Shown: positions 4,007 through 35,860 of the stretch, in pieces
Layout: each line of letters opens with the position of its first letter
Position numbering within the stretch: the first letter of the stretch is position 1
Source: Escherichia coli
GTDB lineage: Bacteria; Pseudomonadota; Gammaproteobacteria; Enterobacterales; Enterobacteriaceae
DNA: 36,351 bases
Assembly: GCF_017348835.2 (NCBI RefSeq)
Contig: NZ_CP072313.1
Direction: 5' to 3' (one strand)
Program-made: the position numbers and the translations under genes
The notes under the pieces: model-generated
The model's database searches: none
What the model saw: the letters and a program-made list of their open reading frames with translations, nothing else
What the model was told of the DNA's origin: nothing

Positions 4007-4522
4007 TTACGCTCTGTTTTCCACGCGTTGCCACCCTGTCGCCCTGCGCTGTCCAGTCGTACCGTATTTTGCGCGGATTTCTTCTATCGTGTGTTCTTCA
4101 CGATTCCAGTAACGTTTATGTTCTTCTGGACGATAAAACCATTGTTTTTTCTTTGCCGCCCATTTACACCCGATTTCTTTTAAAGTTTCTTTATGTGTAA
4201 TGGTATCTCCACTAATCCAGACCCAGTTACCTATAACTTCAAATACCAGACCTGATAAACCAGAAAGAACGTTTAATACTTTTTCCAGGTCGTCACCGTA
4301 ATTATATCGAGAATGTTCATCAGTGCTCTGAAACTGATTAATTTTATCGATGTTAGCCATGAGAAAATCAAAAGCTGCATTTACCGCTTTCATCAGTTCA
4401 GCCCCTAAAGGATTACGATCTGGATGATATTTTAACGCAGCTTTTCTGTATGCTGCTTTGATATCTTTTTCGGTTAATTCACCGGATAACCCAAAAACAT
4501 TTAACGCTTCCTGGATATTCAT
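4007..4522 (-). CDS. J-domain (DnaJ-like) protein, 171 aa, first gene downstream of module A3 promoter
   Basis: N-terminal J-domain with the invariant HPD motif (AAYRKAALKYHPDRNP); C-terminal part unrecognised. Confidence 0.7.
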   Translation of the reverse strand: MNIQEALNVFGLSGELTEKDIKAAYRKAALKYHPDRNPLGAELMKAVNAAFDFLMANIDKINQFQSTDEHSRYNYGDDLEKVLNVLSGLSGLVFEVIGNWVWISGDTITHKETLKEIGCKWAAKKKQWFYRPEEHKRYWNREEHTIEEIRAKYGTTGQRRATGWQRVENRA

Positions 4523-4950
4523 TTCAAATCTCCTGTCCGTTTGGACTTAAGAAGGAAAGGAGCCAATCTCCTTTCGATGAAACAATAATACATCTATTTG
4601 GATGTATTATCAAGGTTTCTGATCTGAAAAACGGTAAATTATTTGATGATTGTCACGCTGTTATCCGCGCCAGCGGATGTAAGGGGCGAACGAAAGTTCC
4701 AGGGTAGCACAGGAGCCACATCGCCCCGAAGCGCGGCAACGCCGCTACTGTTATCAACCGGAACCAGGGAACACCCTCCCGCCCTGCTAAGCCCGACTGA
4801 CTCACAGACAACGATGACGCTGATTTGCGCCGCAGAATGCCGCAGTTAGCGCTCGCGCCAGCGAGTTTACGCCGTCCAGGGTTTCCCTGGACGGGGCGCT
4901 GTACTGCGCGTGTGAGCGTCAGCGAGCTACGGGCGCAACACGCCAGAAGT
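4523..4950 (+). repeat. type-A module copy 3
   Basis: near-identical to 693-1123 and 2453-2866. Confidence 0.8.
4585..4613 (-). promoter_or_regulatory. sigma70-type promoter of module A3 (-35 TTGATA, 17-bp spacer, -10 TATTAT)
   Basis: same as the promoters at 755-783 and 2515-2543. Confidence 0.55.
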
Positions 4951-7193: not shown

Positions 7194-7300
7194 TTTTTAA
7201 TTCTCCGCAACAATACGAAATCATATAGTAATTTACTATATGATTTATCTTTGGCAAGTAATTAACTTATCTGATTTCTTCCATTGGTAAGGGGGCTTTT

Positions 7301-7554
7301 GATGTCGCGCCAGCGACATGTAAGGCGGTACGCTGTGGTTACATGTGGAACTGGAGTAAAACCGCCGAAGCCCGGCGTAAGCCGGTACTGATTGATAGAT
7401 TTCACCTTACCTATCCCCATCCTGCTAAGCCATACCCGCTTTCAGCCATGACGGAGTTTCTGTGCGCGGTCGGAGTGGTCCCGACAAGGGTTTACCCGAA
7501 GTCGGGGCGTATCTCCGCGTTAGCGGGCCGTTAGGGCCGCTTACGAGCGTGTAT
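7301..7554 (+). repeat. type-C structured element copy 1; inverted partner at 35981-36235
   Basis: about 95% identical to the reverse complement of 35981-36235; shares the 5' hairpin and CTGCTAAGCC core with types A and B. Confidence 0.8.
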
Positions 7555-10315: not shown

Positions 10316-10600
10316 ATGTCACAAGCAAAAGCAAACCTGAAGAAATTACGTCATCACTGTTATATTCCACCAAAACAAAAAATATCCAGACTGTATTATG
10401 TTGAAAAAGCCTTAAGTTCTCCCTGGATATATCGTGAACGGCCTGCATACAGAGCAGAGTTGCTACTTACACATGACACACTGCTTGTTATTTATGGCCT
10501 GGCAAAATCCGGCCTGATTGACCGTTCTGAGGAATCACTCAACAGAGAAATCAAAGGGGTCCGAAAAGCGCTCGCAGCCGGACGTTTCCGTTGGTCGTGA
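10316..10600 (+). CDS. hypothetical protein (94 aa) upstream of the T4SS
   Basis: ORF in the track; stop codon immediately followed by element B1. Confidence 0.45.
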   Translation: MSQAKANLKKLRHHCYIPPKQKISRLYYVEKALSSPWIYRERPAYRAELLLTHDTLLVIYGLAKSGLIDRSEESLNREIKGVRKALAAGRFRWS

Positions 10601-10799
10601 GATGCCGCGCCAGCGGCATGTAAGGCGGCACTCTGTACTTAAATATGGCTTTGCGGGTTATCCGCCGAAGCCCCGCGCCAGCGGGTACTGTCTTCTATAT
10701 TCTCTGGAACTGCGCTCGCGCCCCCTGCTAAGCCCAAAACGCACGGAACCAACAGCTACACGGTTGTTTCTGGTCGAAGACCGACACTGCTGAAGCGAT
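10601..10799 (+). repeat. type-B structured element copy 1
   Basis: hairpin ATGCCGC-GCCA-GCGGCAT, then TAAGGCGG, CCGCCGAAGCC, CTGCTAAGCC, TTGTTTCTGGTCGAAGA; starts at the stop codon of the upstream gene. Confidence 0.8.
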
Positions 10800-11163
10800 A
10801 TTATTCGAAAGTTATCCTACTGCGCAATGCCCCTGTTTTATTTGAGGAAAATGGCATGAAGCATAAAAATTTTATTCCGAAATGGTATGATTCAACTCTT
10901 GAGTCAATTTCCCATCAAGATGTTAACACGATTCACAGTATCATTGATGAACACCACAAATTATGGAATATCCAGATGTGCAACAGGAACTATTTAACAG
11001 ACTGTTATCCGGTAAAAAACTGACGATTCATGATGAGCGAGAAATAATTGATATCTGCTCACGAAGGAGCGCAACATATCATTTAACCAGAAGTAATATC
11101 CCTAAGTAATCTGACGCTGCCAATAATCCGTTAAATTAAACTTTCATCGTTACCTGTCAAAAA

Positions 11164-11769
11164 ATGTCTATATCCGCAACTGTGCTTATGACACTGATCA
11201 GTCAGTGCGCACCTGGTGTTTCTCCTGAAACCATGCGTGCCATTATTATGACTGAATCCGGTGGGAATCCCTACGCTATAGCAAATGTCACCGACGGTGG
11301 CAGTAAATATTTTACCACTGAAGAGGAGGCTGTTAATCACGCAAAAAAACTGACTACAGATAAAAAAAATTTCAGTGCTGGCCTAGGGCAGATAAACAGC
11401 CGTAACTTCCAGACTTTAAATTTAACTCATGAATCCGTTTTTTCTCCCTGTGCGAATATTCGCGCTGCTGCGGCAGTGCTGAAAACGTGCTGGGATAAAT
11501 ACGAAACAAAAGGGGGGGACCAACAAAAGATACTACGTGACGCTATGAGTTGTTATTACTCCGGTAATAACAAACGGGGTTATGTGAAGGAAAGCAATGG
11601 CAAAAGTTATATCGATATAATTGAGGAAAAAGCCGGAATACATACTCATTATGATATTCCGGCAATAAAGTCATATTCAGAAACATCCAGCCATTTAATG
11701 GTATCCAGTGATAACCATGATAAATGGGATGTTTTTGGTGATTTCGGAATACAGGATTTTAAGGAGTAA
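11164..11769 (+). CDS. virB1: VirB1-like lytic transglycosylase
   Basis: lysozyme-like catalytic motif region (IMTESGGNPYA); first gene of the virB-type cluster. Confidence 0.85.
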   Translation: MSISATVLMTLISQCAPGVSPETMRAIIMTESGGNPYAIANVTDGGSKYFTTEEEAVNHAKKLTTDKKNFSAGLGQINSRNFQTLNLTHESVFSPCANIRAAAAVLKTCWDKYETKGGDQQKILRDAMSCYYSGNNKRGYVKESNGKSYIDIIEEKAGIHTHYDIPAIKSYSETSSHLMVSSDNHDKWDVFGDFGIQDFKE

Positions 11770-11850
11770 CACACAGCCATTAATTTAATTATTCCTACCA
11801 TCTTTAACTACAATCTAATTAATGTTATCTAATTATGTATGGAGATAATC

Positions 11851-12156
11851 GTGAATAAATCCATTGCATTATACAGAACGTTCTTTTTATTTTTACTTTG
11901 TAGCTTTATTGCTACAAATCCGGCTCTGGCAGCGGGTGTTGGTGGGCTTGATAAAGGCACAAACTTCATCGGTGAACTGCGCCTCTGGGCGTATGGTTTT
12001 GTTGGTGGTGTGGCCCTTTTACACATTCTCTGGAAAGTATTCCAGGCATACACGGAAATGGACTCCTGGGCTGGCGTTCTCAAATCACTGATGTATGCCG
12101 CAATTGCCGGTGGTTGTGTGGTAGCTGCTGAAGCCTGCTACCAGATTTTCAAATAA
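11851..12156 (+). CDS. virB2: VirB2-like pilin (start taken at GTG 11851; the ORF track extends to 11839)
   Basis: small hydrophobic protein with signal-like N-terminus and two hydrophobic segments; GGAG 7 nt before the GTG. Confidence 0.8.
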   Translation: MNKSIALYRTFFLFLLCSFIATNPALAAGVGGLDKGTNFIGELRLWAYGFVGGVALLHILWKVFQAYTEMDSWAGVLKSLMYAAIAGGCVVAAEACYQIFK

Positions 12157-12210
12157 TTACCTAATCACCGGAATACATGATGTATTCCGGTTCATCATGA
12201 GGATCAAAAG

Positions 12211-12534
12211 TTGGATAAAGAAGAAATTAAAGCAGCCGAAGAGCTTAAGGCAATCTTTCTTACCTACAATGGCCTGAATCGTCCTGCAATGATCAAAGGT
12301 ATGCCCATCATTCCTTTTATTCTGTGTCTGCTGGCTCTCATGGTTTCTTTTTTTGTTGGCATACTGACTATTGATTTTTACGGGCTTATTATTCCCTCCA
12401 TTATTATCGGCGTAATGATCGCCATCAAACAAATGTGTGCCGATGACCCGAACGCCATGTCTGCCAGGGCACTAAAATTTAAAGGTCTGTGCCTTAAGGG
12501 ATTTCGTTCGAATAACGTTCTGAAGGTTGAATAA
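12211..12534 (+). CDS. virB3: VirB3-like inner-membrane protein (TTG start)
   Basis: LNRPAMIKGMP motif typical of VirB3; overlaps the virB4 start; GAGGA 7 nt upstream. Confidence 0.8.
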   Translation: MDKEEIKAAEELKAIFLTYNGLNRPAMIKGMPIIPFILCLLALMVSFFVGILTIDFYGLIIPSIIIGVMIAIKQMCADDPNAMSARALKFKGLCLKGFRSNNVLKVE

Positions 12535-14965
12535 TATGTCGATAAAGAAAATAACTAATAATTTCATTCCTCCTTATCACTCACATATTCATGAAAATAT
12601 CATCTGGCTTGAAGATAAAAAACTACTGCTCACTTTTCTTATTGAAGGCATTCCCTATGAAAGCCTGACAGATGATATGATTCTGAACAACTTTAACGGA
12701 CAAAAAGAAACACTTCTTGGACTCTGTAAAAGTGAAAGAGTTTTTCTGTGGAAACATCTTGTAAAACGCGAATCACCTATGGATGCCAGATATAAATTTC
12801 CTGGCAATCCTTTTCTTCAGCGCTTAGGTGATTTCTACTGTGATACTTTTAACGGAGAAAGATCATTCAGAACAGATTATTTTCTCACAATAGGCATTCC
12901 TTATGATGATATCGATGCTGGCGAAAAAAAAGCTAAAGATATCATCCGGCAGATTGAAACAGGTTTTAAAGACTACAATATTTATACGCTTGGGATCAGT
13001 GACGGCGGTATTTCCGATATTTGTTCAAACTATCTGAATTATTTACTCAATCATGATTTTGAGAAAATACCGTTATCTGCAACGAAGATTTCAGAGAGTA
13101 TTAAGAACAGCAAATTCTATTTCAGCTTTGATACTCTTGAAATAAAAAATCGCACAGGACACGATAATAAATTTTGTTCCAATTATATCGTAAAAGATGT
13201 ACCCCGAGGCTCGCAGATTGGTCAGTGGAATTTTCTGTTATCCCTGCCATTTGAGTTTATCCTGACGCAATCCTTTATTCCCGATTCGCTATCAAAATCC
13301 AGCAAGAAAATTGAGCAACAGCTTAACAAACTCACTTCCGTAAAGGACGCTGGTAAGACGCAACACACCGAACTCCATATGGCCCAGGAAGCTATCATCA
13401 ACCAGGAAACCGTTTTTGGCTCCTGGCACAGCGTCCTTTCCGTCTTCGGAAACACACCTGATGAAGCCAGTGATAACGGTTCTGAAGTCGCGGCGGAATT
13501 TGTCACCAGTGGGCGGGGATTTCGTTTTGTTCGTGCAGCGTCTGAAGCACCTTATGCATGGTTCAGTCATCTGCCAGCCTCAAAACTGCGCCCCCTTGCC
13601 ACACAACGCACGCTCACTAATGTCTGCTGCCTGATGCCGCTTCATAATCACAGCTATGGCAAAAAATCAGGAAATCCAATTGGTGATGGCTCTGCCATAA
13701 TGCCGCTGAAAACCGTCACTGATGGTCTTTACTGGTTCAACACTCACTACAGCGCACCAGGGCGTAATGTAACAGGACAGATGATCGCGGGGCACGGAAT
13801 GCTGCTGGGTGCGACTGGTGCGGGAAAAACCACGTTTGAAATGATGGCCGCCGCGTTTATCCAGCGTTTTAACCCAGATATGTTCGTGATTGACTTCAAC
13901 CGCTCTACCGAACTGGCAATCAGAATGTTCGGTGGTCAGTATTTCTCTCTGTCTGAGGGTGTGTATTCCGGCCTGAACCCCTTCCAGATCGGAGACAATG
14001 ACGATCCTGAACTGATGGCATTCCTGAAAGAGTGGGTCAAACGTTGTGCTGTTAATAACGATGGCAGCGACTGTAGCGACAGTGAGGCTGAAGAGATTGA
14101 CCGCGCCGTTGAAATGGTGATGAAACTTGAACGTCGCCAGCGACGTTTCGCTCGTCTGCAATCCCGTATACAAAGCCCCGAACTGAACGTCCGTCTGTCT
14201 AAATGGTGGGATAATGGCGCTCTTGCCTGGGCTACTGACAGCGAAGAAAATAAATTCGATCCCAATCAATACAGCAAAATCGGTTTTGACACGACTGTAA
14301 TCCTGGAAACAGTTAATCAACGAGATCATCCTGCGTGTGAAGTCATTCTTTCTGTTCTGTTTTTCTACAAAAAACGAATGCAGAAAGGCGGTAAGCTCAT
14401 GCTCTCCATCGTTGAAGAGTTCTGGAAACCCTGTAACTACCCAATGACACAGGCTTTAATCAAGGCTTCGCTCAAGGCTGGTCGTATGAAGGGGGAAATG
14501 ATGTGGCTCACCAGTCAGTCACCGGAAGACGCGATTAACTGTCAAATTTTCGCGGCTCTCGTTCAGCAGACACCGACAAAAATCCTGCTCCCTAACCCTG
14601 ATGCCAAATACAGCGGCTATAAAGAGATTGGGCTGACAGAAAAAGAATTTCGCCAGCTTAAAAAGCTGAAACTCGAAAGCCGAACAATGCTGATTAAGCA
14701 AAGTGGCTCAAGTGTCTTTGCCAAAATGGACCTGGTGGGATTTGACGATTTTCTGCCTGTTATTTCCTGCTCAATGAAAGGGATTAAATTGTGCGAAAAA
14801 ATCAGGGAGGAAATAGGCTCTGACGATCCTGAACTCTGGTATCCCCCGTTTATCGAGGGGATTTATCAGATAGATGACGTTATACGGGAAGCTAACAGCG
14901 ATATCCCTGAAGTCTGGCTGCCCTTCATGATGAAACGGCTCAAAGACAAATTGCCGGAAAAATAA
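12527..14965 (+). CDS. virB4: VirB4 ATPase
   Basis: 812 aa; Walker A GATGAGKTT; conserved position after virB3. Confidence 0.9.
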   Translation: MNNMSIKKITNNFIPPYHSHIHENIIWLEDKKLLLTFLIEGIPYESLTDDMILNNFNGQKETLLGLCKSERVFLWKHLVKRESPMDARYKFPGNPFLQRLGDFYCDTFNGERSFRTDYFLTIGIPYDDIDAGEKKAKDIIRQIETGFKDYNIYTLGISDGGISDICSNYLNYLLNHDFEKIPLSATKISESIKNSKFYFSFDTLEIKNRTGHDNKFCSNYIVKDVPRGSQIGQWNFLLSLPFEFILTQSFIPDSLSKSSKKIEQQLNKLTSVKDAGKTQHTELHMAQEAIINQETVFGSWHSVLSVFGNTPDEASDNGSEVAAEFVTSGRGFRFVRAASEAPYAWFSHLPASKLRPLATQRTLTNVCCLMPLHNHSYGKKSGNPIGDGSAIMPLKTVTDGLYWFNTHYSAPGRNVTGQMIAGHGMLLGATGAGKTTFEMMAAAFIQRFNPDMFVIDFNRSTELAIRMFGGQYFSLSEGVYSGLNPFQIGDNDDPELMAFLKEWVKRCAVNNDGSDCSDSEAEEIDRAVEMVMKLERRQRRFARLQSRIQSPELNVRLSKWWDNGALAWATDSEENKFDPNQYSKIGFDTTVILETVNQRDHPACEVILSVLFFYKKRMQKGGKLMLSIVEEFWKPCNYPMTQALIKASLKAGRMKGEMMWLTSQSPEDAINCQIFAALVQQTPTKILLPNPDAKYSGYKEIGLTEKEFRQLKKLKLESRTMLIKQSGSSVFAKMDLVGFDDFLPVISCSMKGIKLCEKIREEIGSDDPELWYPPFIEGIYQIDDVIREANSDIPEVWLPFMMKRLKDKLPEK

Positions 14966-14974
14966 CTGTCTCTG

Positions 14975-15175
14975 TAGCATGCCGCACAAGCGGCATGTAA
15001 GGCGGCACTCTGTACTTTAATATGGCTTTGCGGGTTATCCGCCGAAGCCCCGCGCCAGCGGGTACTGTCTTCTATATTCTCTGGAACTGCGCTCGCGCCC
15101 CCTGCTAAGCCAAAACCGCACGAAACCAACAGCCACGCGGCTGTTTCTGGTCGAAGACTGACAATCTTAAAGCGA
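14975..15175 (+). repeat. type-B structured element copy 2
   Basis: hairpin ATGCCGC-ACAA-GCGGCAT and downstream conserved blocks; sits between virB4 and virB5. Confidence 0.8.
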
Positions 15176-15948: not shown

Positions 15949-16296
15949 ATGTTCAAAAAACTACTTGGCGGTTTTATCCTTGCCTTTGCTTTTTTATTAT
16001 CCGGTTGCGGTGGTGATAATGGTGAATTAGCCGGGACATATATAGAAAAAAATCCTGACTCTGGTGATGCACCTCAAAAATGGATTATCAAATACGACAA
16101 AAAGGATAATTACTACACTCAAATATGGATAGAAAAAGATAAGAAAGGTAATGAGCATAACGGAACAACCAACTCATTCCTTATTAGAGATGGAGACTGG
16201 CTTGCAGGAAAAGAAAAACATTTTATTCGAGTGATTGATAAAAACACGCTTCAGTTAAGAGATGATGAGAACGCTTTGTATATCCGTACAAACTGA
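15949..16296 (+). CDS. lipoprotein, probable entry-exclusion protein (Eex-like)
   Basis: lipobox LLSGC; location between virB5 and virB6 as in IncN/IncX-type clusters. Confidence 0.6.
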   Translation: MFKKLLGGFILAFAFLLSGCGGDNGELAGTYIEKNPDSGDAPQKWIIKYDKKDNYYTQIWIEKDKKGNEHNGTTNSFLIRDGDWLAGKEKHFIRVIDKNTLQLRDDENALYIRTN

Positions 16297-16316: not shown

Positions 16317-16350
16317 AACGCCTGTCCCTGTGACGGGCGTTTTCTTTTGC
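16317..16350 (+). terminator. intrinsic terminator or attenuator between the lipoprotein gene and virB6
   Basis: 10-bp stem (AACGCCTGTC / GACGGGCGTT) followed by TTCTTTTGC. Confidence 0.4.
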
Positions 16351-29553: not shown

Positions 29554-29684
29554 TATCTAATGACACGTCTGAAGTATCCGATTAACCAGGGGTGGTTTGT
29601 CGACTTTAGATTGTGCCATATATGGAGTTGTTAGAAGAAAAGGGACTTCCTCCGGTCGGAGCCACCAACTCAAGGCCGGAAAAC

Positions 29685-29716
29685 AAAAAAGCCCGATTAC
29701 CAGTCGGGCTTTTTTG
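29685..29716. terminator. bidirectional rho-independent terminator between convergent topB and relaxase genes
   Basis: AAAAAA-AGCCCGA-TTACCAG-TCGGGCT-TTTTTT; works on both strands. Confidence 0.6.
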
Positions 29717-29723
29717 TTTCTGA

Positions 29724-35654: not shown

Positions 35655-35860
35655 TGTTTTAAATGCCGCTTTAGCGGCATGGAAGGCGGCACTCTGTAGC
35701 TAAATGTGGTTTCGCTGGTTATCCGCCGAAGCCCCGCGCTAGCGGGTGCTGAATTCTATATTCTGAGGAACAGCGCTCGCGCCCCCTGCTAAGCCAAAAA
35801 CGCACGAAACCAACAGCCACTCGATTGTTTCTGGTCGAAGACTGACAATGTTAAAGCGAC
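35655..35860 (+). repeat. type-B structured element copy 4
   Basis: hairpin ATGCCGC-TTTA-GCGGCAT; starts at the stop of the upstream gene. Confidence 0.8.

Follow-up and report, generated by a model that had tools for sequence, protein, structure and literature searches.

The spacer between virB2 and virB3 of this plasmid holds a perfect palindrome, which we consider, at a probability of about 60%, to act as an RNA stem-loop in the polycistronic virB mRNA, placed directly 3' of virB2 and favoring the pilin message. To judge by analogy, it would most likely serve as an exonuclease barrier and/or a leaky terminator, roles of a kind known from papBA and cfaAB. The window, by which we mean the whole stretch of DNA analyzed (36,351 nt), represents an E. 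coli plasmid of ~37 kb with a VirB-type T4SS; the 1.6 kb of it that was tested is 100% identical to the E. coli plasmid pMB9635_3 (NZ_CP103482; 36.9 kb, with an IncI2-like rep and MOBP), which also encodes a VirB-type T4SS, ParA, a VapC toxin–antitoxin pair, a topoisomerase, Hha, and H-NS. The hairpin region is present on just 11-12 related plasmids, and no chromosomal location for it was found among 5426 E. coli genomes; a REP/BIME-like repeat, which would be expected in many intergenic copies, was rejected on this distribution.

The palindrome, ACCGGAATACAT-G-ATGTATTCCGGT, spans 25 nt at 12167..12191 on the + strand, in a region (12160-12200) that reads cctaatcACCGGAATACATgATGTATTCCGGTtcatcatgagg. 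Its arms (12167-12178 and 12180-12191, +) are 12 nt each and 100% complementary, with 1 nt between them according to the repeat finder. Both the sequence and the repeat finder confirm the palindrome at the place between virB2 and virB3 given in the initial annotation, and the stem is perfect as described there, but it is longer than the 10 bp reported, with 12-nt arms in the DNA and 11 bp in the RNA, and the "-GA-" center claimed for it is in fact a single G (CCGGAATACAT-G-ATGTATTCCGG). As RNA, the palindrome forms a stem of 11 bp, 5 of them G-C, capped by a 3-nt UGA loop. The isolated hairpin has an energy of -14.8 kcal/mol; the whole 54-nt virB2–virB3 spacer reaches -16.1 kcal/mol (z = -3.3), and none of 200 shuffles was as stable. 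The hairpin is separated by 10 nt from the stop codon of virB2 on its 5' side and by 7 nt from the virB3 Shine-Dalgarno sequence on its 3' side (GAGGA, 12199-12203), which lies within the post-hairpin spacer UCAUCAUGAGGAUCAAAAG (12192..12210, +). This spacer is without a U-tract: the tail directly 3' of the stem, UCAUCAUG, holds 3 U in 8 nt, and the hairpin was not called in a consensus terminator scan.

The window contains 7 perfect inverted repeats with arms of >=12 nt and a spacer of <=8 nt, whereas 40 dinucleotide shuffles gave none; the hairpin is thereby above chance expectation, and the plasmid is generally rich in such elements. By folding energy alone, the hairpin stands out only moderately from its surroundings, in that 8% of equal-length segments within +-2 kb are as stable. 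These equally stable neighbors are for the most part located within a GC-rich repeat or within an inverted repeat of virB1, and their proximity is the reason that the p value for the window is only 0.08. The full palindrome occurs once in the window. A search of the whole window against Rfam 15 at gathering score gave no relevant match to the hairpin, and at E<=1 over 10400-12400 only a single meaningless snoRNA match appeared (E 0.65, 18 bits against a gathering score of 75).

The genes around the hairpin all lie on the + strand. The cluster begins with virB1 (11164..11769; SLT lytic transglycosylase by Pfam), followed by an AU-rich, unstructured spacer (11770..11850; -6.8 kcal/mol over 87 nt), which may give RNase E access to the mRNA just ahead of the pilin cistron. 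The virB2-like pilin gene (TrbC/VirB2) runs from 11851 to 12156 (11851..12156), with an alternative ATG at 11839 and a TAA stop at 12154-12156; its Pfam TrbC/VirB2 match (E 4e-4, 20.8 bits) is below the gathering score of 27.9, its product shares ~35% identity with hundreds of proteins annotated as TrbC/VirB2, and the gene occupies the place expected of virB2. Next come virB3 (12211..12534; Pfam), with a TTG start, and directly after it virB4 (12536-14965; Pfam). The sole promoter-like site on the + strand upstream of virB3 is at 11020-11048, and none was found on that strand within 11049-12363; because there is no promoter-like site between virB1 and virB3, virB3 and the downstream genes must be transcribed through the hairpin. 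A search upstream for an RfaH ops element as an antitermination signal gave no significant match. Other structures in the T4SS cluster are a hairpin that opens a 190-nt repeat directly after virB4, a perfect inverted repeat before a small gene at 15949, and large GC-rich repeats that follow virB11 and virD4. A textbook intrinsic terminator also lies inside the cluster just before virB6 (~16317-16350, +), with a 10-bp GC-rich stem (AACGCCTGTC/GACGGGCGTT) followed by TTTCTTTTG; virB6–virB11 must therefore depend on read-through or on a downstream promoter.

The strongest argument for an element acting in the mRNA comes from the same junction in other lineages, the breadth of which was obtained from a plasmid tblastn search (a VirB3 profile search of genome contigs gave 3 loci only). 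The nearest are Yersinia pestis pJARS36 and an Arsenophonus plasmid, whose VirB2 proteins are 84% and 67% identical to that of the window; in both, DNA similarity ends at the virB2 stop codon, and the spacers are unalignable yet strongly hairpinned. Further lineages, with VirB2 or VirB3 ~35-37% identical, are those of Xenorhabdus, Morganella, Haemophilus pF1947, E. coli pRHB06-C03_4, a Citrobacter plasmid, Klebsiella pHNLDL3-2, two IncI2-type plasmids, and IncN R46/pKM101. A dominant hairpin was found in the virB2–virB3 spacer of all 12 lineages in which this spacer is 36-82 nt long; the hairpin sequences are unrelated, and their loops range from 3 to 10 nt. When each hairpin was set against segments of equal length from its own locus, p was 0.001-0.23 for the single lineages (0.08 for the window) and 7.6e-10 for all of them combined. 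The spacer itself seems to be maintained, since adjacent T4SS genes mostly abut or overlap. A clear U-tract follows a GC-rich stem in 5-6 of the 12 lineages (L010, L011, L012, L014, L015, and partly L017); 6 of the 12 hairpins, including those of the window and R46, are without one and have the virB3 ribosome-binding site 3-19 nt downstream.

Where the hairpins are imperfect, the mRNA-sense strand always folds more stably than the antisense strand: -22.1 vs -12.7 in Arsenophonus, -12.7 vs -7.9 in Morganella, -15.4 vs -11.1 in IncI2, and -14.9 vs -12.7 in Haemophilus. This asymmetry is due to 9 G·U pairs in total, and on these fold predictions it points to a function in mRNA rather than in duplex DNA. 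What is expected of a protective stem-loop, namely a stable structure 3' of the pilin cistron within an operon that is read through, and conservation of that structure in homologous operons, was found here on both counts. Two systems have no such element: R388 (L020) has a 12-nt virB2–virB3 gap (2409-2420) and a Ralstonia plasmid an 8-nt gap, neither with a hairpin, and because both work without the spacer, the hairpin is dispensable for T4SS function as such. In R46/pKM101 (L019), a U-tract-less hairpin, GGGGGGAC..GUCCCCC, lies at 4488-4536 between traM (virB2) and traA (virB3), and the pair of R46/pKM101 and R388 provides a useful natural contrast.

Within the E. coli plasmid family (relatives of 87-100% identity), the stem is kept: the lone change in it is an A to G at the apical pair, turning A-U into G·U, so that 10 pairs never vary, 1 varies one-sided, and 0 show double changes. 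Variation is seen in the 5' flank and in the central loop base, which may be G, T, or A; overall, 1/22 stem positions vary against 10/33 in the rest of the spacer (Fisher p 0.019). Covariation within the family comprises this single one-sided change, with no double compensatory changes, and these data would be compatible also with constraint on the stem at the level of sequence. In one relative, CP101957 (L006), the virB2 frame (1511-1868) diverges after about residue 58 and the annotated CDS ends early, which points to a probable frameshift, due either to a sequencing error or to a pseudogene; virB3 of this relative starts with GTG, versus TTG in the window.

We infer from the sequence an effect of the hairpin on pilin stoichiometry, which could come about as follows. 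Transcription of the operon would start upstream of virB1, and the hairpin, being without a U-tract, would let most polymerases pass, causing a pause or weak termination at most. After endonucleolytic cleavage in the single-stranded region downstream, the hairpin would stop 3'->5' exonucleases, so that a virB1–virB2 or virB2 segment would outlast the virB3–virB11 segment. The outcome would be more message for the pilin than for the low-copy components of the machine, and the weak TTG start of virB3 would push in the same direction. Such a reading in terms of stability or processing fits the hairpin of the window better than attenuation does, because it has no U-tract, and an exonuclease barrier is the best-supported model for all 6 hairpins of this kind; weak termination or pausing may nevertheless occur there, and termination rather than decay may have been the ancestral role of post-pilin hairpins, since about half of the related ones bear U-tracts. 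Of the initial proposal of an "attenuator or RNA-stability element", the placement at the mRNA level after the pilin gene is thus supported by the hairpins in 12 lineages and their mRNA-sense bias, whereas the attenuator half of it suits a stem without a U-tract less well.

That half nevertheless has to be weighed as an explanation in its own right. As a true attenuator, the hairpin would halt some RNA polymerases after virB2, and read-through transcripts alone would carry virB3–virB11; we hold this to be unlikely, though the likeliest of the rival explanations. The 5-6 related hairpins with a U-tract have the look of textbook terminators at the very same position, and from their sequences they look like the canonical type, which here would necessarily be leaky attenuators; another canonical terminator is found inside the operon before virB6. 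An intra-operon terminator in hicAB of the IncI2 plasmid p45 sets a ratio of 10:1, with ~10-fold more upstream than downstream mRNA and a consequence for plasmid fitness, so that plasmids do use such devices (PMC11878559). The p45 case resembles the window in having a hairpin inside a plasmid operon, and differs from it in that termination was shown experimentally and that the operon is a toxin–antitoxin rather than a T4SS operon (PMC11878559). In the window, however, the stem is followed by UCAUCAUG and drew no call in the terminator scan; an intrinsic terminator combines a stable GC-containing stem-loop, which is present, with a U-tract of about 4-8 U, which is not. Hairpins without a U-tract are generally poor terminators in E. 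coli, and this counts against an attenuator. The likeness to canonical Rho-independent terminators extends to a stem with 5 G-C pairs, a short loop, and a position at the 3' end of a gene; it fails in the U-tract and in the essential genes downstream, which in the window have no promoter of their own.

Translational control of virB3, by which the hairpin and its flanks would hide the Shine-Dalgarno sequence of virB3 or make initiation at virB3 depend on termination at virB2, is improbable. In the minimum free energy fold of 12140-12230, an outer helix does pair the last virB2 codons, GAUUUUCA, with UGAGGAUC, the unpaired probability of the Shine-Dalgarno sequence is 0.23 compared with 0.45 +- 0.13 in controls with shuffled upstream sequence, and the TTG start is a weak one. 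Yet this effect falls short of 2 sd in the window, most other lineages show no such effect or the opposite one, and the outer helix is without covariation; occlusion or coupling was rejected on the inconsistency of the unpaired probabilities over the 12 lineages. A mini-ORF in the 3' arm (ATG at 12177 to TGA at 12198-12200) was likewise rejected, its first ATG being lost in relatives and no free Shine-Dalgarno sequence being available to it.

Slightly less probable again is a DNA operator, in which the 25-bp perfect dyad would bind a dimeric plasmid regulator through the half-site CGGAATACA. The dyad is perfect about a 1-bp center, the stem is conserved at the sequence level in the E. coli family, and the 9-mer half-site occurs 6 times in the window where 0.21 occurrences are expected, an over-representation that a stem-loop acting in the mRNA leaves unexplained. 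One of these occurrences is part of a second inverted repeat, at 11632-11663, which is built from the same 11-mer, CCGGAATACAT. There is, however, no promoter at the hairpin to regulate, and the same spot in other lineages is occupied by unrelated sequences with 3-10 nt loops, G·U pairs, and U-tracts. Both the half-site at 11745 and the inverted repeat in virB1 carry disruptive substitutions in relatives of 87-97% identity, and both are within coding sequence, where they encode Gly-Ile. The half-site as an operator motif was therefore rejected: it is enriched, but its extra sites are unconserved in close relatives, and no promoter adjoins the dyad. The virB1 repeat, GCCGGAATACAT...ATGATATTCCGGC (+), is itself a stable structure (-17.7 kcal/mol, z = -6) and, to judge from its sequence, which is disrupted in related plasmids, is probably non-functional. 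The least probable explanation of all is that the palindrome has no function and arose by chance or hitch-hiking, for example as a by-product of local duplication of the 11-mer CCGGAATACAT, which is also present 535 nt upstream, in virB1; certain T4SS operons do lack any virB2–virB3 spacer, but perfect 12-nt arms are unexpected by chance, the flanks have diverged around a conserved stem, and 12 lineages have a hairpin at this junction.

For a stem-loop that favors the pilin message, the nearest conjugative precedent is reportedly found in the tra mRNA of R1-19, a stable core of which, containing traA, Koraimann and Hogenauer are said to have described in 1989. The presumed likeness, to be taken as a lead only, is that of a conjugative pilin message outliving the remainder of the long transcript of a transfer operon; R1-19 belongs to MPF_F, the system of the window to MPF_T. 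Protective 3' structures are known to reshape the stoichiometry of many E. coli operons, with pilin precedents in papBA and cfaAB (Dar & Sorek 2018, PMC5927463). As in those operons, the stem-loop here is directly 3' of the gene for the most abundant structural subunit in a polycistronic operon, conservation is of structure and not of sequence, and mRNA for the subunit is presumed to exceed that for the assembly machine. In contrast to the chaperone-usher systems of papBA and cfaAB, the subunit here is a T4SS VirB2, and the protective role of the element is a putative one; many of the structures of Dar & Sorek are moreover inside the downstream ORF (PMC5927463), whereas that of the window is intergenic.

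A full-text literature search found no description of a virB2–virB3 hairpin. The design principle is long established, and its recurrence across MPF_T plasmids is a modestly interesting generalization. It is rather doubtful that a rule so far undescribed operates in MPF_T systems, with a fast-evolving virB2–virB3 stem-loop, with or without a U-tract, fixing the ratio of pilin to machine, here perhaps together with a sequence-specific reader of CGGAATACA; if a sequence-specific factor did read the hairpin, the six-fold repetition of this 9-mer would be accounted for. If confirmed, the hairpin would be a simple cis-element setting the pilin level relative to the secretion channel, and a design with a hairpin after the major subunit gene would extend from chaperone-usher fimbriae to VirB-type systems, with no new mechanism involved. 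The element recurs in medically relevant backbones, namely IncI2 mcr-1 plasmids and IncN R46/pKM101. Pilin level bears on conjugation efficiency, sensitivity to pilus-specific phages, and plasmid cost, and because it affects these traits, the hairpin is a possible handle for tuning or comparing transfer rates.

Several other repeats and elements were observed in the window. A GC-rich structured repeat of ~190 nt is present in five copies of the same orientation (+; 7301-7490, 10602-10798, 14979-15175, 23723-23919, and 35663-35859). The first two hairpins of the copy at 7301 carry compensatory changes (ATGCCGC..GCGGCAT vs ATGTCGC..GCGACAT, and CCCCGCGCCAGCGGGG vs CCCGGCGTAAGCCGGG). The 5' ~90 nt of the repeat are 75-82% similar to an unannotated sequence in >5000 IncF/IncI/IncI2 plasmids, found there ~750 nt beyond repA, and the copy at 7301 has the same position relative to the repA of this plasmid. 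The repeat had no Rfam match; it may be a "G-site", a G4-type signal for single-strand initiation, of which copies have spread through the transfer region.

Repeats of a second family, 286-425 nt long, are found at four places (689-1113, 2449-2873, 4519-4944, and 21378-21663). Three of these copies precede small genes of the leading-region type, and the fourth separates virB11 from virD4; each copy holds the palindrome CCGTCCAGG..CCTGGACGG. The family is reminiscent of the IncN "CUP" repeats, and the plasmid encodes CcgAII. An Rfam match to the antisense RNA AgrB (29631-29716, +; 61.9 bits) adjoins a gene for a DinQ-like type I toxin (named dqlB in the matching record). At the end of this region lies the longest perfect hairpin in the window (29682-29718), which has 15-nt arms and T/A tracts. 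Perfect AT-rich palindromes are further found at 7218-7246 (AAATCATATAGTAATTTACTATATGATTT, with 14-nt arms) and, in the form ATAATACATCTATTT(A/G)GATGTATTAT, twice at 2515-2540 and 4585-4610; from their sequences, all three are likely operators.
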